A DNA stretch of 64,000 bases. Origin: Candidatus Bathyarchaeia archaeon (GTDB lineage Archaea; Thermoproteota; Bathyarchaeia; Bathyarchaeales; Bathycorpusculaceae). The DNA lies in contig JBEKBM010000013.1 of NCBI GenBank assembly GCA_050015395.1, positions 17,970 to 81,969 of the forward strand. Direction: 5' to 3'. Made by a program: the position numbers and the translations under genes. Every line of letters starts with the position of its first letter. The first letter of the stretch is position 1. Below are positions 3,795 through 61,943 of the stretch, one piece after another. The notes beneath the pieces are model-generated. The model made no database searches. It was not told the DNA's origin and saw nothing but the letters and a program-made list of their open reading frames with translations.

Positions 3795-4388
3795 TTAGCC
3801 TATGCCGATTGGTTCTCCCTTAGGCTTGGTTTCTGACTCAGCTTTGGGAAGCACCACTTCTAAGACGCCGTTTTTGTAGCTTGAGTTTGCTTCTTTAACT
3901 TTCACTTTTACTGGCAGGGCAACTTCCTTGTAGTACTTGTTCTGAGCAGTATCAACCGAAATCGTCAGCGAGTCTTCCGTGCCGTGAAGTTTTATGTCGC
4001 CTTTTTCTACGCCTGGAAGCTCCACGACCACATGGACTTCACCGTTTGTCTCAACAATGTCAACGAGTGGCTCGCGTTCGTCTTTAACCTGCGGTGCCCC
4101 TTTGAGGCCCTTTTTGATGTTTCCAAACTCTTGAATTTCAGGCTTGCCGTCTGGACCAATCTTCATACTGTAACCATAAACGAAGGGTCCAAGCTCCTTA
4201 ATTGTGCTGCCGTCAGGCAGTTTACGCTCCTTAACGTATTCTTTAGGGACTTTTTCAGTGAAATTTTTCAGCTCTTCATCCATCATTTTTTCCATTTCAC
4301 GGAACATGTCATCTATGTCGCCGAAAAACGGTTCTTTAGCCCGTTTCTTTCTTGACCATTCAGGGTAATCCTCATTATCTGAAGACAT
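3795..4388 (-). CDS. hsp20: Archaeal small heat-shock protein Hsp20
   Basis: GPFVYGYSMKIGPDGKP, EREPLVD, ELPGVEK, YKNGVLEV. Confidence 0.95.
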   Translation of the reverse strand: MSSDNEDYPEWSRKKRAKEPFFGDIDDMFREMEKMMDEELKNFTEKVPKEYVKERKLPDGSTIKELGPFVYGYSMKIGPDGKPEIQEFGNIKKGLKGAPQVKDEREPLVDIVETNGEVHVVVELPGVEKGDIKLHGTEDSLTISVDTAQNKYYKEVALPVKVKVKEANSSYKNGVLEVVLPKAESETKPKGEPIGIG

Positions 4389-4590
4389 TTAACACTCACC
4401 ACACTATCTTGCGTTTTCCACTCCAATAAATTTTATGTTACAAAAAATGCTTATTTTATGTTGCCGATAGGCACTTTTCAAGCGGCTACTCTGTTGAATG
4501 CGGCACAAGCAAATCTTAAGGATGCCTTTAAAAGTTTAAATGATGGAAAACAAACTAAATGGAATCAGCCAGCAAAAAAAGTGGCAATTT

Positions 4591-4720
4591 GCCGGGGTAG
4601 CCTAGCCTGGCTAGGGCGCCAGACTCATAATCTGGAGAACATAAATGGTGGCCAAACGCCCATGTCCAGAAGTCGCGGGCTCGAAGCTAGAAAAAAGCGA
4701 GAATCCCGCTCCCGGCACCA
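4591..4720 (+). tRNA. tRNA-Met(CAT), elongator type, with two introns (4638..4671 at position 45/46; 4686..4703 at position 59/60)
   Basis: Acceptor GCCGGGG/TCCCGGC-A-CCA; anticodon arm CCAGA-CTCATAA-TCTGG; both insertions have bulge-helix-bulge junctions (CTGG/CCAG and CTCG/CGAG central helices); removing them gives a 78-nt cloverleaf. Confidence 0.9.
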
Positions 4721-5064
4721 CTTATTTTTGATGCTTATGCTTTTTGTGTGGAATTTCGTCAACAAATATTAGGGTACCCCTCTGGGTAGTGCTGGAAGAG
4801 TCTGTTTTGGGTTGCTTTTTTGATTTAGAGCTTGAATCAGGCTTAGTCACCACTGATTTCCTTAAAGTTGTATATAAAGCGCCGTGGAAAAGGGAATAGA
4901 GTGATTAAACATGTAGGCAAAATTGCGGAGGGAATTAATTACCGTTTGATCTCTTGCTGGAGTTTGACTGGTTATTTTGAAAGGCTGGCGTTTAGGCTTA
5001 CTTTACTTTTGGAAAATGAAAGAAATTTAAGTGCGTTTAGTAGCTGATAATTAGGTGTAATTTA

Positions 5065-5286
5065 TTGGAGGCAAAGGTTAAGGTTACTAAAGAAGGAATC
5101 CTTGTTCCAGAGCCGCTTTTTAGAGAAATGATAAGCACCTACGTTAAGATGGAGCAGATATTAGCGACTTTAGAGGAGCTTGCAGACGATGAAGCATTGA
5201 AGGCGATTGAAAAAAGCAAGAAGCAGGTTGCTGAAGGCGAATACGTCGAATGCTCCATGAACGACTTGGAGAAAGTCCTGAAGTAA
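5065..5286 (+). CDS. Putative antitoxin (RelB/Phd-like)
   Basis: Small acidic protein with LATLEELADDEALKAIEKS...EG motif, directly followed by a RelE-like start. Confidence 0.65.
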   Translation: MEAKVKVTKEGILVPEPLFREMISTYVKMEQILATLEELADDEALKAIEKSKKQVAEGEYVECSMNDLEKVLK

Positions 5287-5287
5287 C

Positions 5288-5400
5288 ATGCCCTACACCG
5301 CTAGGTTCTCAAAAGCGTTTCTTAGAAAGTACCAAAGATTGCCAACGCAACATAAAGTCAAGAATAACGGGAAGTCTAAGAGAAATTCTTATCAAACATC
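5288..5400 (+). pseudogene. Frameshifted, truncated RelE/ParE toxin
   Basis: MPYTARFSKAFLRKYQRLP, then after a frameshift IKSRITGSLREIL; cut off by the opposing relE gene. Confidence 0.6.
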
Positions 5401-5655
5401 TCATTTGTAGACGTTTTTACGATGCCCCACGGCCAAGAGGAGAATTTTTTCCCCTTCGATTCGGTAAAGAACGCGGTACTTTCCAACTCTTGTTGAAAAT
5501 ACGCCTTTGAATTCTCCATGCAACGGTTTATCTACTTTAGGGTTGTTTTCCCATGAATAGACTTCTTTGATAATTTGAACCTGAGCTTTCTGGTCAAGAG
5601 TCCTGATTTGTTTCGAAAAACGATTAGTCAGCTCAACTGTGAACTTGTGTTTCAA
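5401..5655 (-). CDS. RelE/ParE family toxin
   Basis: FTVELTNRFSKQIRTL...KPLHGEFKGVFSTRVGKYRVLY...AVGHRKNVY. Confidence 0.92.
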   Translation of the reverse strand: MKHKFTVELTNRFSKQIRTLDQKAQVQIIKEVYSWENNPKVDKPLHGEFKGVFSTRVGKYRVLYRIEGEKILLLAVGHRKNVYK

Positions 5656-5839
5656 GGTGCAAATCCCGCACTAGCTCATCTAGCGTCATGGTTTTTCCCT
5701 GTTTAGCTTCGCGCAAAGAAGCCCGTAGGTCTTTTACCAATTTTTTGTCCTGCATGACTTCCAGCGTCTCGAGCAGTTCTTCCATCAGGCTTGCTGCTCT
5801 CGTGAGCAGTTCTTTTTCTTCGGTTGTTAAGAGAGTCAT
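5633..5839 (-). CDS. Cognate antitoxin
   Basis: LLETLEVMQD...REAKQGKTMTLDEL; overlaps the relE start. Confidence 0.8.
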   Translation of the reverse strand: MTLLTTEEKELLTRAASLMEELLETLEVMQDKKLVKDLRASLREAKQGKTMTLDELVRDLHLETQVHS

Positions 5840-6552
5840 AATTGTATGCGCCGTTGCTAAAATATGAGCGATGAGGTTCTTATCTTTTGCTTTCCCTTAA
5901 GGAAAAATTGTGAAAAGTTTTAAACGTCTTAATCTGGAGCCTTAGGCGGGTTTGTGTTTGCTCGTACAACCTACCCCTCGGTCTACTATATGCTTCTAAT
6001 ATGCCCCAAATATGATTCAACATAGAACTGCATAGAACTGATGTCCCGCACTTTCAACATAGAAACGTGTTTTTTCATGTACTTTTTGGCGCAATTAACA
6101 TGGACTTTACTGTTAGATATGGCTCTAAATAGGCTCAGTGCTCTGATTTGAGCAGAAAGCACTAAAAGAAAAAACAAGAGCTAAATTCGCACAGTTTTGT
6201 GAAATCATATTAAGCACTTGCTACAGAACTTTCACGTGGGCTGAAATCAATGAAAGATTACGATAATTTTTTCCTTCCAAGCAGTGACTTAGCAAATCCT
6301 AACCTTTCAACATGGTGTTAACAATCCTCAGATACATAGTCTAACGATTGATAACAACAAATTGCAAATTGTTAGTTTCGACTAACTTCGATGTTGAAAT
6401 GCTAAATCGCCCAATTACTGAGCGAAATAGCTAAACAAACTAAAAAATCACTCCCGTACCTGTTTACTCTTGTTTTTGACCGTAAACCCCAAAGCTCCCC
6501 AGTCTATCTTCCTACGGCTAACCTACGCATGGGTACTTGTAGAAAAGGGGCT

Positions 6553-9083: not shown

Positions 9084-9851
9084 ATGATTGACCAAAATGC
9101 GGTTCTTTTATTTATTACAGTAGCACTGGCTAGCGCGGTTGAAGCGACTGAGGCCCTGACCATTATTCTGGCATCAGGCATTACTAGGGGCTGGCGTTCC
9201 ACATTTGAAGGCGCATTACTTGCCCTAGCTTGTTTGGCTGTAATTGTGGGGGTAGCTGGTACTGCACTAATTTATTATGTCCCACTTTATGCTTTGCGAA
9301 TCGTAGTTGGAACACTGCTGCTTATCTTTGGGTTGCAGTGGCTCACAAAAGCTATACTGCGCCAAACAGGGTTTAAGGCGCCGCATGATGAACGCGACAT
9401 ATACGACAAACAGGTAGCGACTCTTTCTAAGGAGAAAGGAATTCTTCGGGGCCAACGAGATTCCTTAGCTTTTGCAATCAGCTTCAAAGGCGTGCTTTTG
9501 GAAGGTATGGAAGTCATCATGATTGTTATCAGCTTTGGTTTAGCTAACGGAAGCCAGGGTCAACTGGGAACTGCCGCGCTCGCTGCTCTTGCCGCGGTAG
9601 CAGTTATGACGGCAATAGGCGCTGTGGTCGCGAAGCCTCTGACTAAAGTACCCGAGAATTATATGAAGCTGGGTGTAGGTAACCTGCTAACCGTTTTTGG
9701 CCTCTTCTGGATGGGCGAAGGCGTCGGCGTCCAGTGGCCTCTGGGAGATATATTCCTGTTAGTACTCCTAGCGATAATCTTCCTGGCAACATTGGGATTG
9801 ACTGCTTATTTCAAACGAGTCCACGAAAGCCTGACGGAGGTTGAGCAATAA
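9084..9851 (+). CDS. COG4280-like membrane protein, putative divalent-metal permease (FTR1/GDT1-like ExxE motifs)
   Basis: Duplicated VEATEA and LEGMEV motifs, TRGWRS, FGLQWL.KAILR, VPENYMK. Confidence 0.78.
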   Translation: MIDQNAVLLFITVALASAVEATEALTIILASGITRGWRSTFEGALLALACLAVIVGVAGTALIYYVPLYALRIVVGTLLLIFGLQWLTKAILRQTGFKAPHDERDIYDKQVATLSKEKGILRGQRDSLAFAISFKGVLLEGMEVIMIVISFGLANGSQGQLGTAALAALAAVAVMTAIGAVVAKPLTKVPENYMKLGVGNLLTVFGLFWMGEGVGVQWPLGDIFLLVLLAIIFLATLGLTAYFKRVHESLTEVEQ

Positions 9852-39191: not shown

Positions 39192-39292
39192 TGGTAGCGG
39201 GGACTAGATTTGAACTAGTGATCTCTGGGTGTCTCACTACGCTTAGCGCAGTTATGAGCCCAGCGGGTTAATCCTGGCTACCCCACCCCGCT
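39192..39292 (-). tRNA. Initiator tRNA-Met(CAT) with a canonical 37/38 intron (39231..39252)
   Basis: A1-U72 acceptor AGCGGGG/CCCCGCT-A-CCA, three G-C pairs in the anticodon stem, 22-nt intron with BHB (CTCA/TGAG). Confidence 0.95.
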
Positions 39293-54453: not shown

Positions 54454-55800
54454 ATGGCTAGGCGTATTATTGTTATTGGGGCTAACGCGGCAGGCGTTGA
54501 AGCAGCCTCTGCTGCACGCAAAAAAGACCGAACAGCCGAAATCACGTTGGTTACTCAGGAGAAGAATGCTGGTTACTCACGCTGTGGATTGCCGTTTGTT
54601 ATTGGCGGGCAAATTCCAAGTTTTCACGATTTGATTGTTTACCCACCAGCATATTTTCAAATGTTAAAGTTGAATTTGCGTAACGAAACAAAAGCCACTG
54701 CGATTAACACTAAAGAGAAAACTGTCACAGTTGTTGACAAGGCAGGAGCCACCGAGGTTCTGCCATACGACAGCTTGGTGATTGCTACTGGCGCTGACTC
54801 TTTTACACCTCCGATTAAGGGCAGAGAAAAACCTGGAGTCCTAAGCCTCCGCGGTATAGAAGACGGCGAGAAGATTGATGCTGCAGTTAAAGCTGGTGCG
54901 AAATCAGCTGTTATTATGGGTGCTGGCTTAATCGGGTTGGAAGTGGGCGTCGGCTTGATAGAGAAAGGTTTGAAAGTTACCGTGGTGGAAATGTTGCCGC
55001 AGATTCTGCCGCAGTTGCTTGACGCGGACATGGCGAAACTTGTCCAAGAGCATCTGGAGGAGAAGGGCATGCGCATACTAATCAGCAAAGGCGTTGAAGA
55101 ATTCCTCGGAGACGGCAAAGTCACAGCAATCATGGCTGGCGGAGAAAAAATCGAGGCTGACTTGTTCATTAGCGCTTTTGGAGTACGAGCTAACACTAAA
55201 CTCGCGGTTGACGCCGGCATACCGTTAGGTGAGACACGTGCTATAAAGACGAATTCGCGCATGGAAACTGACGTGAGAGACGTTTACGCCGTTGGCGATT
55301 GCGCTGAAGCACCAAACATCATCACTCATCGACCCATGTGCGCTCAACTTGGCACTATCGCGGTTAGGCAGGGCAAAGTTGCGGGAGCAAACGCTGGAGG
55401 CGATTACTCGCAGTTCACAGGCGTTTTAGCTTCGGCTGTCACTCGGCTGTTTGAGATTGAAGCAGGCAACACAGGATTGACTGAAACCTCTGCAGTGCGC
55501 AACCGCATCGAAGTCGTAACTGGAGCCATAACTAGCAAGACCAAGGCAGATTACTTCCCAGGCGCCAAACCCATCAAAATCAAACTCGTCGTCGAGAAAG
55601 AATCCCAACGCATCATAGGCGGCCAAGTCGTAGGCGGAGAAGAAGTTACCCAACGCATAAACTGCCTCAGCTTCGCCATCCAGAAAGGCATGACCGTACG
55701 GGAACTATCCAAAGCAGACACCGCTTACGCGCCACCGCTCTGCGAAACTTGGGAACCCATGGTTCTAGCCGCAGAAATGGTCCTCATGAAACTGCGTTAA
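54454..55800 (+). CDS. FAD-dependent NADH oxidase / CoA-disulfide reductase family protein
   Basis: GANAAG, YSRCGLP (single redox Cys), GAGLIG, YAVGDC, AYAPP. Confidence 0.9.
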   Translation: MARRIIVIGANAAGVEAASAARKKDRTAEITLVTQEKNAGYSRCGLPFVIGGQIPSFHDLIVYPPAYFQMLKLNLRNETKATAINTKEKTVTVVDKAGATEVLPYDSLVIATGADSFTPPIKGREKPGVLSLRGIEDGEKIDAAVKAGAKSAVIMGAGLIGLEVGVGLIEKGLKVTVVEMLPQILPQLLDADMAKLVQEHLEEKGMRILISKGVEEFLGDGKVTAIMAGGEKIEADLFISAFGVRANTKLAVDAGIPLGETRAIKTNSRMETDVRDVYAVGDCAEAPNIITHRPMCAQLGTIAVRQGKVAGANAGGDYSQFTGVLASAVTRLFEIEAGNTGLTETSAVRNRIEVVTGAITSKTKADYFPGAKPIKIKLVVEKESQRIIGGQVVGGEEVTQRINCLSFAIQKGMTVRELSKADTAYAPPLCETWEPMVLAAEMVLMKLR

Positions 55801-55890
55801 ACATGCTTATTTCTTTTCTTTATCCCTTTTCACTACATATTTTTTACGCCGAAATTATTTTGAAAAAAACGAATTGATCATTAATTTCCG

Positions 55891-57030
55891 TTAGTAAACA
55901 TTAAGACTATTTTCATCACTATATTTATCAAATAACTTTAGTAGTCTTTTAAAGATATTTTCTGCTGCTTCAGGGGTTTTTGAAATTGGCTCGTTTAAAA
56001 TAGATATAATCAAATCCTTTAATTCTGAATAACCGTGCATGGAATAGTGAGGGTATACTAGTTTAAGATTGTCGCTTACCTTTCTCTTAAGTTGTGGATC
56101 CTCTAGAACTTGTTTATACCATAACTCTTCAGCATATGTCCATGTTACAGATAACATGCTTGAAAGTTTGATAGGGTCCCGTAAACTTTCCCATTGTTTT
56201 AGGGAGTAAGGGACTGGAGATACTTCGCTGAAATATATTGAAACTCGATCAACTTCATCCGTTAAAAGCGGTGTAATATTTTCGCTTTTTGCAACCTTTT
56301 CTAATTGAATGTCCTCGGCTAGTTGCGCTGCCATCACTTGTTCAAACGACAAAGCTTTTCGTGTGGTAAGCTTATCAGTAATTCCTAGTTTTGCTCTATG
56401 AGTTAAAAAAGCATGACAGGTTTCATGGTCTATAACGGTTGAAAAGACTTTTTTTTCGACCTCTTTAAGAGCTGGGATTCTGCTGAACAGGAAAACAAGT
56501 TCACCCTTTGGATTGTGGAAATGCTCAAAACCACGATTATTTTCGGTGAACGTAATCAAAACTACTTGAATGCTTAAATCGGGCAGCTTTTCAACGCCTA
56601 ACTTTGGAAGCAGAATGCCTATTTTGTTTTTAATGATTTGTTCATATTCTTCGCCCATGTGATTTATTAAGCGAGAGCCAAACAAATTCCGAAATTCAAA
56701 GAAGCCTATTGCGCACGAAGGACACAGTGAGAGACGCTCAAAAGGAAGAACGACGTGGGAATGTTCATTACAAACAGAACATACCTGCCTCCCAACGTCG
56801 CCATGATCAAATTGGTTGATGTGATTACGCAATTCCTCTTTTGATCTAAATTTCCTGCCGCAATCACAGATGAAATCGATTATAGCACTTGCCTTCTGAT
56901 TTAACATACGGTCAGTTTTAGCCATTTGCGTGTGCTGTCCCTTATGCTGTAGAACATGTTCCAAGTACAACTTACTAGGAATGCTTCTATGGCAACGTGG
57001 ACAAGTTAATTTTCGGTCATTTTTTGTCAT
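55891..57030 (-). CDS. C2H2/C4 zinc-finger protein with HExxH metallopeptidase domain
   Basis: CPRC...HVLQH, CDCGRKF...HINQFDH, CSVC...CPSC, then IDHETCHAFL...LAEDIQLE. Confidence 0.72.
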   Translation of the reverse strand: MTKNDRKLTCPRCHRSIPSKLYLEHVLQHKGQHTQMAKTDRMLNQKASAIIDFICDCGRKFRSKEELRNHINQFDHGDVGRQVCSVCNEHSHVVLPFERLSLCPSCAIGFFEFRNLFGSRLINHMGEEYEQIIKNKIGILLPKLGVEKLPDLSIQVVLITFTENNRGFEHFHNPKGELVFLFSRIPALKEVEKKVFSTVIDHETCHAFLTHRAKLGITDKLTTRKALSFEQVMAAQLAEDIQLEKVAKSENITPLLTDEVDRVSIYFSEVSPVPYSLKQWESLRDPIKLSSMLSVTWTYAEELWYKQVLEDPQLKRKVSDNLKLVYPHYSMHGYSELKDLIISILNEPISKTPEAAENIFKRLLKLFDKYSDENSLNVY

Positions 57031-57177
57031 GTTACCAAACAGGCAAGTGATGTATATGAGAAGAAGTATTAAATTTTTTTTTATTTCTCATATGCAAACC
57101 GTTAACTTTAGTTTCAAACAAGTAAGCGAACAATGAAAGTCTTTTAAGCAAAATCAACCATACTTACAGTTCGGTCT

Positions 57178-58516
57178 ATGTTTAGATGAGGGAATTACTA
57201 CGCCCTTAAAATTTCATAATAATGCTATTTGTTTAAGTGGTCTTGCTGGAACTAAAGTAAAATGTGACGTTATAGGGAAATATTATCCATTCTGGTGGGG
57301 CATTACTTCGGGTGGTCCAAGAGCAAATAACAGATTTCCAACATCAATTATTGAACTGAATGCAGCTTCTGGCGAAGTGTATATTGAAGATACAAAAGAA
57401 ACCGTGTTAGGATCTGCAGGACATGCATTGGAACTTAAAACAAAAACACAGAATACCGCTAACCTAAAAGTAATCTTAATAGAAAATAATCCTGAATGCT
57501 ATCATAATTTACGGGAGGTCATAAAACGCAGATGGCCTACGATAAACTTGAAGGAGGCAGAAGGCGCTGTCGAGTCAAATACAAGCGGAATCTATTTAAT
57601 TAATAAGAATCTTGAAGAGGCATTAACCGATATCGATAGTCTCTACTTGGGCAATTCGTTATATTTCTTTGATCCTTTGAGAAGTGTCGAATATAAAACT
57701 ATTAGCGAAGTTGCAAGTAAGAGAATGCGTACTCCCTTTAAAACAGGAACGGAATTTTTTATTTTTAGTTTTACTTCCGATTGGTTTTTGGGGCGAGATG
57801 ATATCCCACCGTTGCCTACTACCACTGATAAAGATTTATGGTCTATTCAAGAGACCAGAACTGTGCAACAGGCGGACGAACTTTTTGGAAGTAACCAGTG
57901 GCGCAAAAGCATACTTGTCGGTAGTGTCTCAATAAAGGAGAGCGAAAGGCTCTTCATTCGATTGTATAAAAATAGGCTACATAGATGGTTTAGGTACATT
58001 CTTCCTCTCCCTTTCAATCCTAAGAACCAGCAGTTATTCCATCTTATATTATGCTCTAATTACGAAGCTGGTGTCAGAAGAACAAGAGATGCATACTCAT
58101 CGATAACTGGCAATCCTAAATATTCACCTAGTAACGAAGAGGCCTTACTGAAGTTCAGAAAGTTGCACCCTACACTATTCTTAGGTATAATCGGAAATAG
58201 ACGCCCTCTAGAATGGCGAATTCTTTGGAAAATAATAAAACAGCATGAAGGGAGTCTTTGTGATTATAGATGTAACGACTTAATCAGAGAAGAGACCGAT
58301 AAGGAGTTAAGAGTAAAAGCTCTCCATTGGCTGTTAGCTAACGATTACCTTAAACTTGTCAAGATAGACAATGCATGGGAGCATCAAATGCGAAGATACC
58401 GAATTAAATGGAGCACCGTAAAATCTAACTTAGAGATTGAACCGCCACCAAAATTGCGTCCAATATCTCCACAACAGCTAAAATTAACCAAGCTACAAAC
58501 TGTGGAAGAAGATTAA
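57178..58516 (+). CDS. TcmP-like (three-Cys-motif partner, methyltransferase fold, C-terminal wHTH) protein with an anomalous start
   Basis: The frame is open upstream of GTG 57377: TKVKCDVIGKYYPFW...IIELNAASGE...GSA...ILIENN...YFFDPL...LFGSNQW...FHLILCSN. The ATG at 57178 is 1 nt out of frame. Confidence 0.75.
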
Positions 58517-58518
58517 AA

Positions 58519-59337
58519 ATGCGAGAACATAGTCATAAAGACCATAAGGTTACCTCAGGCACTAAGGAATGGGCAGATTCTAACTTCAATTGCATAATTG
58601 GCTGTTATAATGACTGCAGATATTGCTATGCAAAAATTATGGCTAGACGATTCGGTAGGAGTACGCCGTCTTCTTGGAAGGACATGAAAATAAGAAAAGA
58701 TGTCTTAACCAAGAGGATACATAAACTGCCAGGTCGCATAATGTTTCCAAGCACTCATGATATTATTGAAGCTTCACCTTTCAAAGAAGCATGCTTTACA
58801 GCGTTAGAGAATATTCTTTATAGCCAAAATACTGTTTTAATAACTACAAAACCACGTCTTGAGGTCATACGAGAAATTGACGAGAAATTTTCAAATTTTA
58901 AAAATCAAATTCAGTTCAGATTCACGATAACATCTTCTTGCGATGAACTTTTACACTTTTGGGAACCGAACGCATCACTTTTCAGAGAAAGGATAACTTG
59001 TCTTGAATTCGCTTTCTATAGAGGGTTTAAAACTAGCGTCTCAATCGAACCATTCTTAGACTATGACCCCATACCACTCATTAAATCGGTTGCCCCTCTT
59101 ACTACTGAATCAGTTTGGTTGGGAAGAATGAACTACATCGCTTGCCACAATCTTTCTGAACAAGAGGCGCCTTATTACAAGCAGGTTCGTAGGAATTATG
59201 AAACGAAACACTTACTTGAAATATGCAATAGCCTAAGAGATTTTCCAAAAATACGATTTAAAGACAGCATTAGAAACCAAATTGGCTGTAAAAATGGTAC
59301 AAGCTTTGAGAGTATAGTCAAATGGCAAAAAAGTTGA
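58519..59337 (+). CDS. DUF5131 (Gp37/Gp68)-like radical SAM protein
   Basis: EWADSNFNCIIGCYNDCRYCYAK (CxxxCxxC), IMFPSTHD, LITTKP, VSIEPFL. Confidence 0.8.
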   Translation: MREHSHKDHKVTSGTKEWADSNFNCIIGCYNDCRYCYAKIMARRFGRSTPSSWKDMKIRKDVLTKRIHKLPGRIMFPSTHDIIEASPFKEACFTALENILYSQNTVLITTKPRLEVIREIDEKFSNFKNQIQFRFTITSSCDELLHFWEPNASLFRERITCLEFAFYRGFKTSVSIEPFLDYDPIPLIKSVAPLTTESVWLGRMNYIACHNLSEQEAPYYKQVRRNYETKHLLEICNSLRDFPKIRFKDSIRNQIGCKNGTSFESIVKWQKS

Positions 59338-59867
59338 CATATTTTAGCTCGGTTGCAGTTTCAGGGCAATCTTGTTCGGGTAAATCAACTTTGTGTAACC
59401 TTCTGGCTAACCAACTTTGTTGGACCCATGTTGATATTGGTGCAGAATTTAGAAAACTGGTAATTAACAATCGACTAGAAATAGAACAGTTTGGTCATAT
59501 TCCTGAGGATCAATTGCACAAAATCGATGAGCAGATAGCTGGACGTATATTAACAGAGCCTTACCGAGTCTGGGACGGTCGATTAGCTTGTTATCTATCG
59601 CAACAACTCAAAAGCGTCTTAAGGGTTTATTGCACGGCACCCATTGAAATAAGATCCCAACGCTTAGCAAAGCGGGAGAAAATGTCGATCCAAACGGCAT
59701 GGGCAAAAATTGAAAAGCGGGATGCTGAAGAACAAGAAGTGTTCGAAAGAATGTATGCACTTTCAGATCCTTACAATCCAAAATGGATAGACTTAAGGGT
59801 TGAGACCTTGGGTTCTCCAGAAGCCCTTATTCTACCAATATTGAATCGCTTAATGCTATCTTATTAG
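59322..59867 (+). CDS. Cytidylate-kinase-like nucleoside monophosphate kinase
   Basis: VSGQSCSGKST P-loop, GAEFR, ID, DGRLA, APIEIRSQRLAKRE, RD...RMY. Confidence 0.82.
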   Translation: MAKKLTYFSSVAVSGQSCSGKSTLCNLLANQLCWTHVDIGAEFRKLVINNRLEIEQFGHIPEDQLHKIDEQIAGRILTEPYRVWDGRLACYLSQQLKSVLRVYCTAPIEIRSQRLAKREKMSIQTAWAKIEKRDAEEQEVFERMYALSDPYNPKWIDLRVETLGSPEALILPILNRLMLSY

Positions 59868-60172
59868 CGTCCATATTGTTAATTCGGCTTTGCCTTATTC
59901 ATAGCAGCAAATGATTAATCTCATGCAACATACTTCAAATTGAGTGATCACTTGTCAAACTCTAAAGTAGTCAGATAAACAGTTATCTTTGATCAGTTTT
60001 TCTGTCGCTAATCACACTTTTAGTTGTAACCTTGCTACTTAGCGGTGGTACAGCAGTCTTCAATTGGTTAAAAATCGCGCTATGGCTACTTTCAATCGTT
60101 GGCTTACTATCGTTCGCAAGCTTAATATTGGGTTTTAAACGAAATAAGATCATCGTAAGGGGTGAAAAAAAA

Positions 60173-61006
60173 TTGTATCCTTCGTTTCAAAGGACTTTGT
60201 GCCAAGATTTTGTGTTACAAGCAGAGGAAACATGGAATATGATGAAACTTGGGCATGATACCAAGATAGATGTTGCTGAGGAATCAATAACTGACTGGAA
60301 TTTGTTGAAACTCCAAGTTAATCATCCTCATGAAATAAGAACTCAGAAATTTACAAAACCTGTTGAAGGAAGAGAAGGTGCTGACTGGGAATGGTGGTTA
60401 GGCGAAGATGACCTCTGGTTAGGACTTAGAGTGCAAGCAAAGAGAATAGATTCGGATCAGTTGAGATACCAATACTTGAACCACAAAACAAGATACGGTA
60501 ACCAAGCCGATCTTCTCATTGATTATGCTGGAAAGAGCCAACCCCCAAGAATACCAGTTTATGTTTTTTACAATTACTGGGATTCGGATAAATTTGATCC
60601 ACATTGGCTTTGCCCAGCGCACCCCAAGAAGTTAGAAATGCTTGGATGCGGAGTAGTAGAAGCAACCTTAGTCAGATCTATCCTTGCACGAGGGCACGAC
60701 GACATTCAAACACTTTCTTCAGTTATGTACCCGTGGAGTTGCTTGGTATGCTGTCAAGGGTTTAGCCGAGGAGATTATAGACTTCCTTTCGCAGCCTTCA
60801 GATTTTTGTCCTCCGCCTTCAAAATTGAGAGAAAAGACGCCGAGAAAGATTTATACGAGGAAAAACGATTCGTTTCAAAAAGTCCTCCAGAATATGTATA
60901 CCGAATTTTGGAGGGCGAAAAACTTTCATCGGAAGAATGGGAAAAAATTGGCCTAAAAACCATAAGTGTAATTCGTCGCAAAAATGTCATTCATCCATTT
61001 CCTTAA
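60173..61006 (+). CDS. DUF6615-like putative PD-(D/E)XK nuclease
   Basis: EESITD, FTKPVEGREGADWEWW, LRVQAKR, Q.DLL, PVYVFYN; TTG start after GGTGA. Confidence 0.75.
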   Translation: MYPSFQRTLCQDFVLQAEETWNMMKLGHDTKIDVAEESITDWNLLKLQVNHPHEIRTQKFTKPVEGREGADWEWWLGEDDLWLGLRVQAKRIDSDQLRYQYLNHKTRYGNQADLLIDYAGKSQPPRIPVYVFYNYWDSDKFDPHWLCPAHPKKLEMLGCGVVEATLVRSILARGHDDIQTLSSVMYPWSCLVCCQGFSRGDYRLPFAAFRFLSSAFKIERKDAEKDLYEEKRFVSKSPPEYVYRILEGEKLSSEEWEKIGLKTISVIRRKNVIHPFP

Positions 61007-61104
61007 TAAGCGATCACTTCGCTCCTTTCTCAGTTTATTTATGACGGGGGCAAATTCAGATTCGCCTGATTACTTTTTCAAATTAAATCAGCTTGCCTCT
61101 ACTA

Positions 61105-61213
61105 GGAACAATCGCGGTTGGCAAGACAAAGTTGCAGGAACAAACGTTGGTAGCGACTACGCGCAGTTTACAGGCATCTTAGCCTAAGCAGTAACTCGAC
61201 TGTTCGAGATTGA
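61105..61213 (+). pseudogene. Degenerate copy of an internal 3'-part segment of the NADH oxidase gene
   Basis: Colinear with 55351..55460, about 88/110 by hand, with a 1-nt deletion and a TAA stop. Confidence 0.85.
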
Positions 61214-61251
61214 TTTCCTTTTCGTTTTCTTTAACTTAAAAATACGCTTTT

Positions 61252-61455
61252 TTATTTGCTTACTCGTTGCCGTATAGCGTCATATTGTTCTAGCGTGAAC
61301 AGTTGCTCTTTACAGTTAGGACATCTGAGCGCTTTAACACCATGAAGCATGACCCCTTGATACTCATATTCAACTGTTACTTCTTCGCATTTCTTGTTGC
61401 ATTTTGGGCAGACAGAGATAGCTTTAGCCTTCCCTTGGTGATGACTATAAAGCAA
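61252..61455 (-). CDS. YgiT/MqsA-type zinc-finger protein
   Basis: CPKC...GVKALRCPNCKEQLF; start uncertain. Confidence 0.7.
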   Translation of the reverse strand: MLYSHHQGKAKAISVCPKCNKKCEEVTVEYEYQGVMLHGVKALRCPNCKEQLFTLEQYDAIRQRVSK

Positions 61456-61484
61456 TAGCCTTTTTCTGTCTTTCTTTTTGTTTG

Positions 61485-61943
61485 TTATTCTATTTGAGAT
61501 GTTCCTGGCTGGGTGAATGGCTCCGTCATGCCGACGAGGAGTTTGCCGAAAGTGTTGATGTGGTTTTCTTCTTCAGCAAGAATTTCCTCCAGCATTCGCC
61601 TTGTGGTGTAGTCGCCTTCTTCCGCCGCAACCTGAATTGCCTGCTTGTAGAGGTTGATGGCTTCTTCTTCGTCCTGCTCGTCTTGTTTGAGCATTTCGAT
61701 GAGGCTGCCTCCGACGAAAATCGGGTCAGGTTTAGTTGTGGCTACGCCGTTTAGGTAGTCTAGACGTTCTGCGAGGCGCTCGGCATGCTTCATTTCCGCG
61801 ATGGCTGTCTTGCGGAAAACGTCTTCCACGATGGCGCCGTCCGTGCCAGTAACCTGGACGTGTTGCCACATGTATTGTATGCTGACTTGGAGTTCGCGGG
61901 CTATGCCTTTGTTTAAAAATTCTAAAAGTTTTTGAGAAACCAA
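61485..61943 (-). CDS. Ferritin-like / bacterioferritin-like di-iron protein
   Basis: RELQVSIQY, EMKHAERL, EEEAI..Y, EEENH. Confidence 0.9.
   Translation of the reverse strand: MVSQKLLEFLNKGIARELQVSIQYMWQHVQVTGTDGAIVEDVFRKTAIAEMKHAERLAERLDYLNGVATTKPDPIFVGGSLIEMLKQDEQDEEEAINLYKQAIQVAAEEGDYTTRRMLEEILAEEENHINTFGKLLVGMTEPFTQPGTSQIE

Follow-up and report, generated by a model that had tools for sequence, protein, structure and literature searches.

A Mobile Pair of a Long TcmP Protein and a Radical SAM Enzyme Related to Spore Photoproduct Lyase, Carried in a Genomic Island of a Bathyarchaeon

The DNA considered here (the window) is a stretch of 64,000 nucleotides (nt) from a Candidatus Bathyarchaeia archaeon (GenBank assembly GCA_050015395.1, contig JBEKBM010000013.1, positions 17,970 to 81,969 of the forward strand); positions are those of the window unless another locus is named. 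A low-GC (guanine plus cytosine) island in it carries, on the plus strand, a gene for a long TcmP protein (TcmP-L; 57200..58516, 438 codons), followed after a 2-nt gap by a gene for a 272-residue radical S-adenosylmethionine (SAM) enzyme that resembles spore photoproduct lyase (SPL; 58519..59337) and, overlapping the latter by 16 nt, a gene for a 181-residue P-loop kinase that resembles cytidine monophosphate (CMP) kinases (59322..59867). What is conserved is a mobile module of two genes, for TcmP-L and the SPL-like radical SAM enzyme, with the kinase as an optional third gene; the module is a variant of the known pair of TcmP and a three-Cys radical SAM protein. We give about even chances to the reading that the module modifies DNA, with TcmP-L targeting a base, the radical SAM enzyme modifying it and the kinase processing a mononucleotide.

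Conservation of the Pair and of the Cassette

Which of the genes in the island belong together? The initial annotation, made from the letters alone, had proposed a modification or defence system in which the pair, the kinase, a nuclease-like DUF6615 protein and a divergently encoded zinc-finger protein with an HExxH motif act together, and had suggested comparing gene neighbourhoods. That comparison covers 78 TcmP-L loci other than that of the window (one in a Bathyarchaeota metagenome-assembled genome and 77 in metagenomes); a locus counts for the radical SAM gene if it has at least 300 nt of room downstream, and for the kinase if it has at least 560 nt. Of the 68 loci with room, 67 have the radical SAM gene immediately downstream of TcmP-L. 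The exception (L071, 6251-8320) has a canonical DUF5131 gene (59.7 bits) directly upstream of TcmP-L instead, a case of partner exchange within the superfamily. Of the 47 loci with room for the kinase, nine have it as the following gene in the same orientation, at -25 to +50 nt, and 38 lack it; by contrast, searches with phmmer and family profiles find the DUF6615 and HExxH proteins in none of the 78 other loci. The proposal is thereby split: the TcmP, radical SAM and kinase genes do form a genuine cassette, translationally coupled and found again at other loci, with the tight spacing first described (TcmP-L runs to 58516 and the radical SAM gene from 58519 to 59337, with the kinase beginning at 59322), whereas the kinase, described from the start as coupled to the pair, is optional, and the other two proteins fall away as members of the system.

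The kinases form one BLAST cluster. On a tree of TcmP and radical SAM proteins (58 rows, without L002 and further genes that are split or partial), the kinase label needs five changes, at least three of them forced by well-supported branches, and the kinase is read as an accessory gene of long standing that has frequently been lost. In two near-identical loci, L013 and L017, the kinase is split into two open reading frames (ORFs); in these loci (4048-6320) the broken kinase is followed by genes for an HNH endonuclease and for another radical SAM protein, this one DUF5131-like.

Besides the kinase, every neighbour family stays within sets of contigs that are related or near-identical, in four loci at most. 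A cognate nuclease, which would be conserved in a system of the restriction-modification type, is not among the recurrent neighbours; only the kinase recurs widely. Neighbours of restriction-modification or defence type are found in at least 14 cellular loci and include N6_N4 and HsdM methylases, an MmeI/Eco57I-type enzyme, HsdR, Mrr, GmrSD and NERD, as well as HNH, TIR, AEP-TOTE, HerA and PIN. The remaining neighbours are housekeeping genes, at many different insertion sites. One TcmP-L locus carries bacterial Pol III alpha and others carry archaeal-type genes (aIF-2B, form III-like RuBisCO), which would place the module in both domains; because a scan of genome contigs with a single radical SAM protein returned one relative only, the taxonomic range is read from neighbouring genes only. 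Prediction of a complex between TcmP-L and the radical SAM enzyme scored 0.00 in two runs, which is evidence neither way.

The Radical SAM Enzyme and Its Relatives

The radical SAM enzyme has a canonical CxxxCxxC motif; its cysteines (C29-x3-C33-x2-C36) are invariant in 39 members of a family with 1687 representatives at E <= 1e-3. The motif and a partial TIM-barrel fold place it in the radical SAM superfamily; the PF04055 profile gives it 16.7 bits (cut-off 29.5) and gives a homologue, P0121, 42.1 bits. SPL is its only sequence relative in the PDB (E 1e-4) and also the top fold match of its predicted structure (predicted local distance difference test, pLDDT, 92.5), which matches SkfB, SuiB and viperin as well and has RlmN among its matches. 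The likeness to SPL (PDB 4fhg and others) comprises the CxxxCxxC motif and the core strands. Unlike SPL, the window enzyme has a methyltransferase-fold partner and an island distribution, and its chain is some 70 residues shorter. It also has no equivalent of Cys140, the hydrogen donor of SPL (PDB 4fh* series): this position aligns with Ser78 here, and with Thr or Ser family-wide, so that the chemistry is not that of SPL.

If SPL is the closest solved relative, how does the enzyme relate to DUF5131, the usual partner of TcmP? The DUF5131 profile (PF07505) gives it 23.5 bits, below the cut-off of 28.9 and over profile positions 5-85 only; hhalign against one DUF5131 protein returns a probability of 82.8%. 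The one canonical DUF5131 compared has Cx3Cx4C against the Cx3Cx2C found here, a difference in spacing that had been pointed out from the start. TIGR04470 (Radical SAM mobile pair protein B) scores 30.6 bits, under its cut-off of 410. To judge from the hhalign match, this radical SAM family is a sister of DUF5131; according to the available text of PMC9477430, DUF5131 and SPL share one megacluster in RadicalSAM.org. The pVip model of prokaryotic viperins has no match to the window enzyme at E <= 0.1 and matches two homologues at 9e-5 and 5e-3.

The family is linked to DNA in two ways. First, 13 of the 36 long radical SAM representatives scanned are fused to DNA-linked domains: ParB_N or HTH_ParB (seven), clamp-loader-type AAA+ (four), N6_N4 DNA methylase (two) and the DnaG zinc ribbon (one). 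One fusion protein has both ParB_N and AAA+, and one of the 13 has DUF1848 in addition. By analogy, the N6_N4 methylase fusions may be regarded as a single-chain analogue of the TcmP-L and radical SAM pair; fusions of the radical SAM protein to TcmP-L or to the kinase were not found among 150 radical SAM representatives. Second, viral contigs carry the family, with a full-length member (240-320 bits, family profile) at 16 of the 17 best loci. Of these 17 loci, four have a DNA methylase gene (C5 in one, Dam-type in two and N6 in one), three a ParB_N gene and one a PAPS (phosphoadenosine phosphosulfate) reductase gene within 3 kb; terminase, portal and replication genes are also near. Such settings are where phages keep DNA-modification genes. 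One viral locus lies beside 7-deazaguanine genes (L121, 4591-8784, a 7-deazaguanine DNA-modification neighbourhood). Phage records at E <= 1e-5 contain no match to the radical SAM protein, a Paenibacillus plasmid gives one weak match, and a Foldseek comparison of its model with viral structures returns generic radical SAM matches only.

TcmP-L: Start Codon, Fold and Candidate Pocket

The assignment of the upstream gene depends on where it begins. Read in six frames, with the N-terminus included, it matches TIGR04474 at 69.7 bits (cut-off 53) from 57251, which makes it a TcmP; the ORF called from GTG 57377 reaches only 49.8 bits. The frame is open from 57137, after a stop at 57134, and its first ATG, GTG or TTG is GTG 57377. 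Upstream of this codon, at 57350, stands IELNAASG, first described as a degenerate methyltransferase motif I; the string is present, and it is not a local degeneration, since the E-x-N/D-A-A-T/S-G-E loop is conserved throughout the TcmP-L family. The N-terminal 59 residues of the window protein likewise retain every family-invariant residue, and its nearest homologues begin MPLKFHNN, with an ATG, where the window reads ACG-CCC-TTA at 57200. The identical ACG is present in contigs of four peat and wetland sequencing runs and is thus not the error of one assembly; the window TcmP-L may be translated from a non-canonical start, with ACG as its codon 1, or may have lost its start recently.

Homologues of TcmP-L number 606 matches, the best 120 of which are 53-74% identical and about 430 residues long. 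The protein occurs in one of 401 genomes sampled from the phylum, the window's own, and in none of the 10 other genomes of the same genus. Some homologous genes are interrupted. In-frame TGA codons fall at the family-invariant Gly291 in L072 (2183-2185) and at the family-invariant Trp377 in L076 (1139-1141); nonsense mutations would be at least as likely as TGA recoding (codes 25 and 4), because read-through in L076 would merge the TcmP and radical SAM frames. In L002, the only relative found in genome contigs, an additional T in a T-run (about 9400-9420) breaks TcmP-L in two, which may be a long-read homopolymer sequencing error rather than decay.

The structure predicted for TcmP-L (pLDDT 81.7) combines an RlmJ-like class I methyltransferase fold with a probable C-terminal winged helix: residues 339-426 bear a weak likeness to the winged helices of SelB (E 0.038). 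RlmJ is the best structural match (Z 15.2, root-mean-square deviation 3.4 Å, 211 residues aligned), with TYW4 and LCMT about one Z unit below it and generic methyltransferases at 12-13. Invariant residues include K21 in helix 1, E95 at the end of strand 2, D158-P159 after strand 4 and W195 after strand 5; mapped by strand order only, they would sit at the SAM and target-base positions of class I methyltransferases. In RlmJ the corresponding roles are filled by K18, E118, D164 of the DPPY motif and W195, and the active site is of the type found in DNA N6-methyladenine (m6A) methylases, as described in the available text of PMC3814359. Unlike RlmJ (the 23S rRNA m6A2030 methyltransferase, DUF519), with which it has no detectable sequence similarity, TcmP-L has DPLR where RlmJ has DPPY, carries one more domain at its C-terminus and has a radical SAM gene as its obligate neighbour.

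The Optional Kinase

The kinase matches Cytidylate_kin2 at 51 bits and TIGR02173, the archaeal (deoxy)cytidine monophosphate ((d)CMP) kinase, at 67.8 bits, below the cut-off of 102.1; the genome's true cmk lies on another contig and scores 106.7 bits against TIGR02173. Eight cassette kinases keep a Walker GKST and the CMK-type motifs DxGxExRK and WDGR, and matches of cassette kinases to the PADLOC pVip-kinase range from 1e-5 down to 1.9e-10 in orthologues.

What Does the Module Do?

Nucleic-acid chemistry, already proposed in the initial annotation, has held up as the best reading of the folds, fusions and viral contexts; that the nucleic acid is DNA is suggested by the fusions to DNA methylase, ParB, clamp-loader and primase domains and by the viral neighbours, methylases and ParB among them. 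In the scheme that we favor, TcmP-L would bind DNA via its C-terminal winged helix and hold SAM and a flipped base in a pocket resembling those of RlmJ and DNA m6A methylases, with K21, E95, D158-P159 and W195 as candidate residues. The [4Fe-4S]/SAM site of the radical SAM enzyme would then start radical chemistry on the flipped base or on its methylated product, and DNA would thereby acquire a non-standard modification. In the loci that have it, the kinase would handle a cytidine-type mononucleotide tied to the reaction, either to supply it or to salvage modified (d)CMP. The module would be carried in variable islands of archaea and bacteria, and relatives of its radical SAM enzyme would serve phages beside DNA methylases and ParB. 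We infer every step of this scheme; the observations are those of conservation, folds, fusions and contexts.

Several points weigh against it. Neither TcmP-L nor the kinase lies near a viral radical SAM gene at any of the 17 loci, so the partnership is not obligatory, and TcmP-L is found in neither IMG/VR viral contigs nor phage or plasmid records. A partner that resembles nucleoside monophosphate (NMP) kinases points to free nucleotides, not to polymer DNA. Comparison of the TcmP-L profile with E. coli RlmJ by hhalign gives a probability of 0.1%, so that the pocket residues are assigned only from the order of strands in the model, and motif IV of TcmP-L is D-P-L-R rather than (D/N)PP(Y/F/W). 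Finally, with no canonical start codon, the TcmP-L gene of the window may yield little protein, or an inactive one, in this organism.

Can the modification be named? A more specific proposal, tentative and rather doubtful, is that the two enzymes, as a self-contained pair, install an undescribed radical-derived modification of a DNA base, probably on cytosine or on an N-methylated base, to which a base-flipping subunit of the amino-methyltransferase type targets it; phages would use the same radical SAM enzyme with partners of the Dam type, the N4/N6 type or ParB against restriction, and cells would use it to mark themselves or for defence. ParB has a CTP (cytidine triphosphate)-binding fold, and in this proposal the CMP-kinase-like gene and the ParB fusions would both point to the involvement of cytidine nucleotides.

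The coupled kinase could also be read quite differently. In a viperin-like nucleotide chemistry, the radical SAM enzyme would make an antiviral or antimetabolite analogue of cytidine, the kinase would feed or mature it, and TcmP-L would act as methylase or regulator. Translational coupling of the CMP-kinase-like gene to the radical SAM gene fits this, as do the P-loop and CMK-type NMP-site motifs retained in the cassette kinases, their matches to pVip-kinase and the presence of viperins at ranks 11-19 among the fold matches of the radical SAM model. We nonetheless hold it unlikely: the kinase is absent from most loci with room for it (38 of 47), SPL rather than viperin comes first by both sequence and fold, the pVip models match weakly or, for the window protein, not at all, the fusion partners and viral neighbours are proteins that bind or methylate DNA, and the modelled architecture of TcmP-L appears to be nucleic-acid-binding.

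SPL as the closest solved relative raises another possibility, namely that the pair is a DNA repair system, which recognizes and reverses an alkyl, crosslink or photoproduct-type lesion by SPL-style radical chemistry. Such a function is improbable in an enzyme that has Ser78, or Thr in its relatives, and no cysteine at the position of Cys140, in a gene whose sporadic occurrence in islands (one of 401 genomes) is unlike that of a housekeeping repair gene and whose neighbours are methylases, ParB, restriction and defence genes. As for RNA, TcmP-L comes closest in structure to RNA methyltransferases (RlmJ first, TYW4 and Trm1 after it) and RlmN is among the fold matches of its partner, as if the two proteins modified rRNA, tRNA or the RNA of an invader; a sporadic occurrence in islands is unlike that of core RNA-modification enzymes, however, and the proteins fused to the radical SAM enzyme or encoded beside it in viruses (DNA methylases, ParB, clamp loader, primase) are DNA-specific, which leaves RNA modification very unlikely.

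The Island, Its Insertion Site and Its Other Genes

The module lies in an island of 5.66 kb (55801..61456, no strand assigned) within a T-rich spacer between convergent genes for CoA-disulfide reductase (CoADR) and a bacterioferritin-like protein. The AT-richness first noticed is borne out: the GC content is 0.34-0.42 over 56000-61500 and 0.43-0.52 in the flanks. The two closest genomes of the same genus, G403 (a complete genome and the closest relative) and G404, have no counterpart of the island, and in both the end of CoADR is within about 5-14 nt of the bacterioferritin-like gene. Wider than the first-described 55891-61006, the island contains all five genes, a CoADR fragment and a small zinc-ribbon gene; no integrase was found in it. 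The CoADR fragment (61097..61213, plus strand) is a degenerate copy, about 80% identical to an internal piece of the gene (55343-55460) and with a stop inside, and lies at the right end of the island; it suggests either that the island stems from a relative in which CoADR was its neighbour or that it has overwritten a paralogue. The zinc-ribbon gene (61252..61455, minus strand), at the right island edge, encodes 67 residues with a CxxC...CxxC pattern, scores 26.4 bits against DUF7479 (cut-off 27) and has weak matches to YgiT/MqsA fingers.

The stretch is covered at 100% of sampled words in at least 24 peat and wetland runs of 2017-2020, in which its population is abundant and which may include the source samples. 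In all four runs compared, the whole island lies on one contig with no differences, and in three of these (X9, X18 and X23) loose ends at 55800 and at 61485-61490 indicate that relatives without the island live in the same samples.

The DUF6615, zinc-finger/HExxH and zinc-ribbon genes are co-inserted and stand outside the module. The first of these (60173..61006, plus strand) encodes 277 residues from TTG 60173 in a longest ORF from 60032; the 75 homologues, mostly of 246-300 residues, begin at the position of the TTG, which is most likely the start. That this co-oriented gene is present was rightly seen: PF20320 (DUF6615) gives 46.2 bits against a gathering cut-off of 23.8, and the Atlas feature score to DUF6615 clusters is 0.93. 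Residues E36, D71-W-E73 and Q88-A-K90 are conserved in 24 sequences, a pattern compatible, on the motif alone, with a PD-(D/E)xK nuclease; no sequence relative was found in the PDB. DUF6615 occurs in two of the 401 phylum genomes. The other gene (L089, 78-3215, in genome G312 of the same family) lies between genes of unknown function for 397 and 282 residues, in a locus where no ORF of at least 80 residues resembles TcmP, the radical SAM protein or the kinase, as judged by length and by eye rather than by family or profile search.

The divergent gene (55891..57030, minus strand; 379 residues), separated from TcmP-L by a 169-nt intergenic region, also answers to its first description: its N-terminus has a likeness to C2H2 fingers (7mc1, E 3.7e-4) and the HExxH residues, H201, E202 and H205, are invariant, together with E238 and D239, in 22 sequences. 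The protein has 25 homologues, belongs to no Pfam, NCBIfam or PHROG family and has no usable Atlas match; considered as a candidate zincin metallopeptidase, it shows sub-threshold matches to M48, DUF5700, M13 and SprT in two to four of the 22 members.

Would these two genes complete a five-gene modification-restriction system, with DUF6615 as its nuclease and the HExxH protein as sensor or regulator? The joint insertion of all five genes within 5.66 kb, the nuclease-compatible E...D-x-E...Q-x-K pattern and the intergenic region shared with TcmP-L would allow it, and it is nevertheless disfavoured as highly improbable, given that neither protein recurs at any of the 78 other TcmP-L loci, that the other DUF6615 locus examined has no such ORF by length and eye, and that neighbour families other than the kinase are confined to related or near-identical contigs at four loci or fewer.

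Elsewhere in the window, a tRNA-Met gene (39192-39292, minus strand) is called at 101 nt, long enough for an intron.

Relation to Known Systems and Significance

The module has its closest counterpart in the pair of TcmP and a three-Cys-motif protein (DUF5131, "phage Gp37/Gp68"), defined by TIGR04474 and PF07505 and listed among the PADLOC candidates as PDC-M41 and PDC-M30. In both, a methyltransferase-fold protein is encoded next to a small SPL-like Fe-S/SAM enzyme, and both pairs are mobile and uncharacterised; the window TcmP-L exceeds the TIGR04474 cut-off, and at L071 a TcmP-L is paired with a canonical DUF5131. The differences are that the radical SAM enzyme of the window stays below the DUF5131 cut-off, and so is not a PF07505 partner, that it has Cx3Cx2C rather than the Cx3Cx4C of the one DUF5131 compared, that TcmP-L is about 170 residues longer, with its probable winged helix, and that a CMP-kinase-like gene is coupled in about one locus in five. 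A comparison with PADLOC, also suggested in the initial annotation, yields weak matches only: PDC-M41A scores 16-20 bits and PDC-M41B and PDC-M30B 17-28, against about 60 bits for a canonical DUF5131, and PDC-M30A has no match. The main text of the preprint on the PADLOC candidates (10.1101/2024.01.29.577857), as far as it was available, names none of PDC-M30, PDC-M41, TcmP and DUF5131, and the literature searched, part of it accessible as excerpts, holds no functional study of TcmP or DUF5131, only mentions in classifications, tables, annotations and surveys.

Prokaryotic viperins with nucleotide kinases (pVip, pVip-kinase, VakA) are similar in that a radical SAM gene is coupled to an NMP-kinase-like gene, with cassette kinases that match pVip-kinase; they differ in that the window radical SAM enzyme is not a viperin, matches no pVip model and is outranked in its likeness to viperin by its likeness to SPL. 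By analogy, the closest mechanistic precedent would be gp53 of phage M6, a radical SAM isomerase of SPL-like type by which a base in DNA is remodelled and whose gene lies between those for gp51 and for gp54, a P-loop kinase, according to the available text of PMC8989533. The thymidine hypermodification of phage M6 would share with the cassette, by this analogy, an SPL-like radical SAM enzyme and a P-loop kinase in one gene cluster, as far as that text describes it (PMC8989533). Unlike the M6 cluster, the window has a CMP-kinase-like enzyme in place of a 5-hydroxymethyldeoxyuridine DNA kinase, lacks an aGPT-Pplase and a pyridoxal phosphate (PLP) enzyme, and is cellular, not phage, in context.

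What, then, does the variant add to this widespread and already catalogued pair? It offers handles on the chemistry of the pair: a canonical radical SAM motif on an SPL-like fold, fusions and phage neighbourhoods with DNA methylases and ParB, and, in a subset, a CMP-kinase-like partner. Should its product prove to be a DNA modification not described before, the module would add one more radical SAM route to modified DNA bases to the single one so far, that of the phage M6 enzyme as described in the available text of PMC8989533, and such a role would explain why the module is found in archaea, bacteria and viruses.

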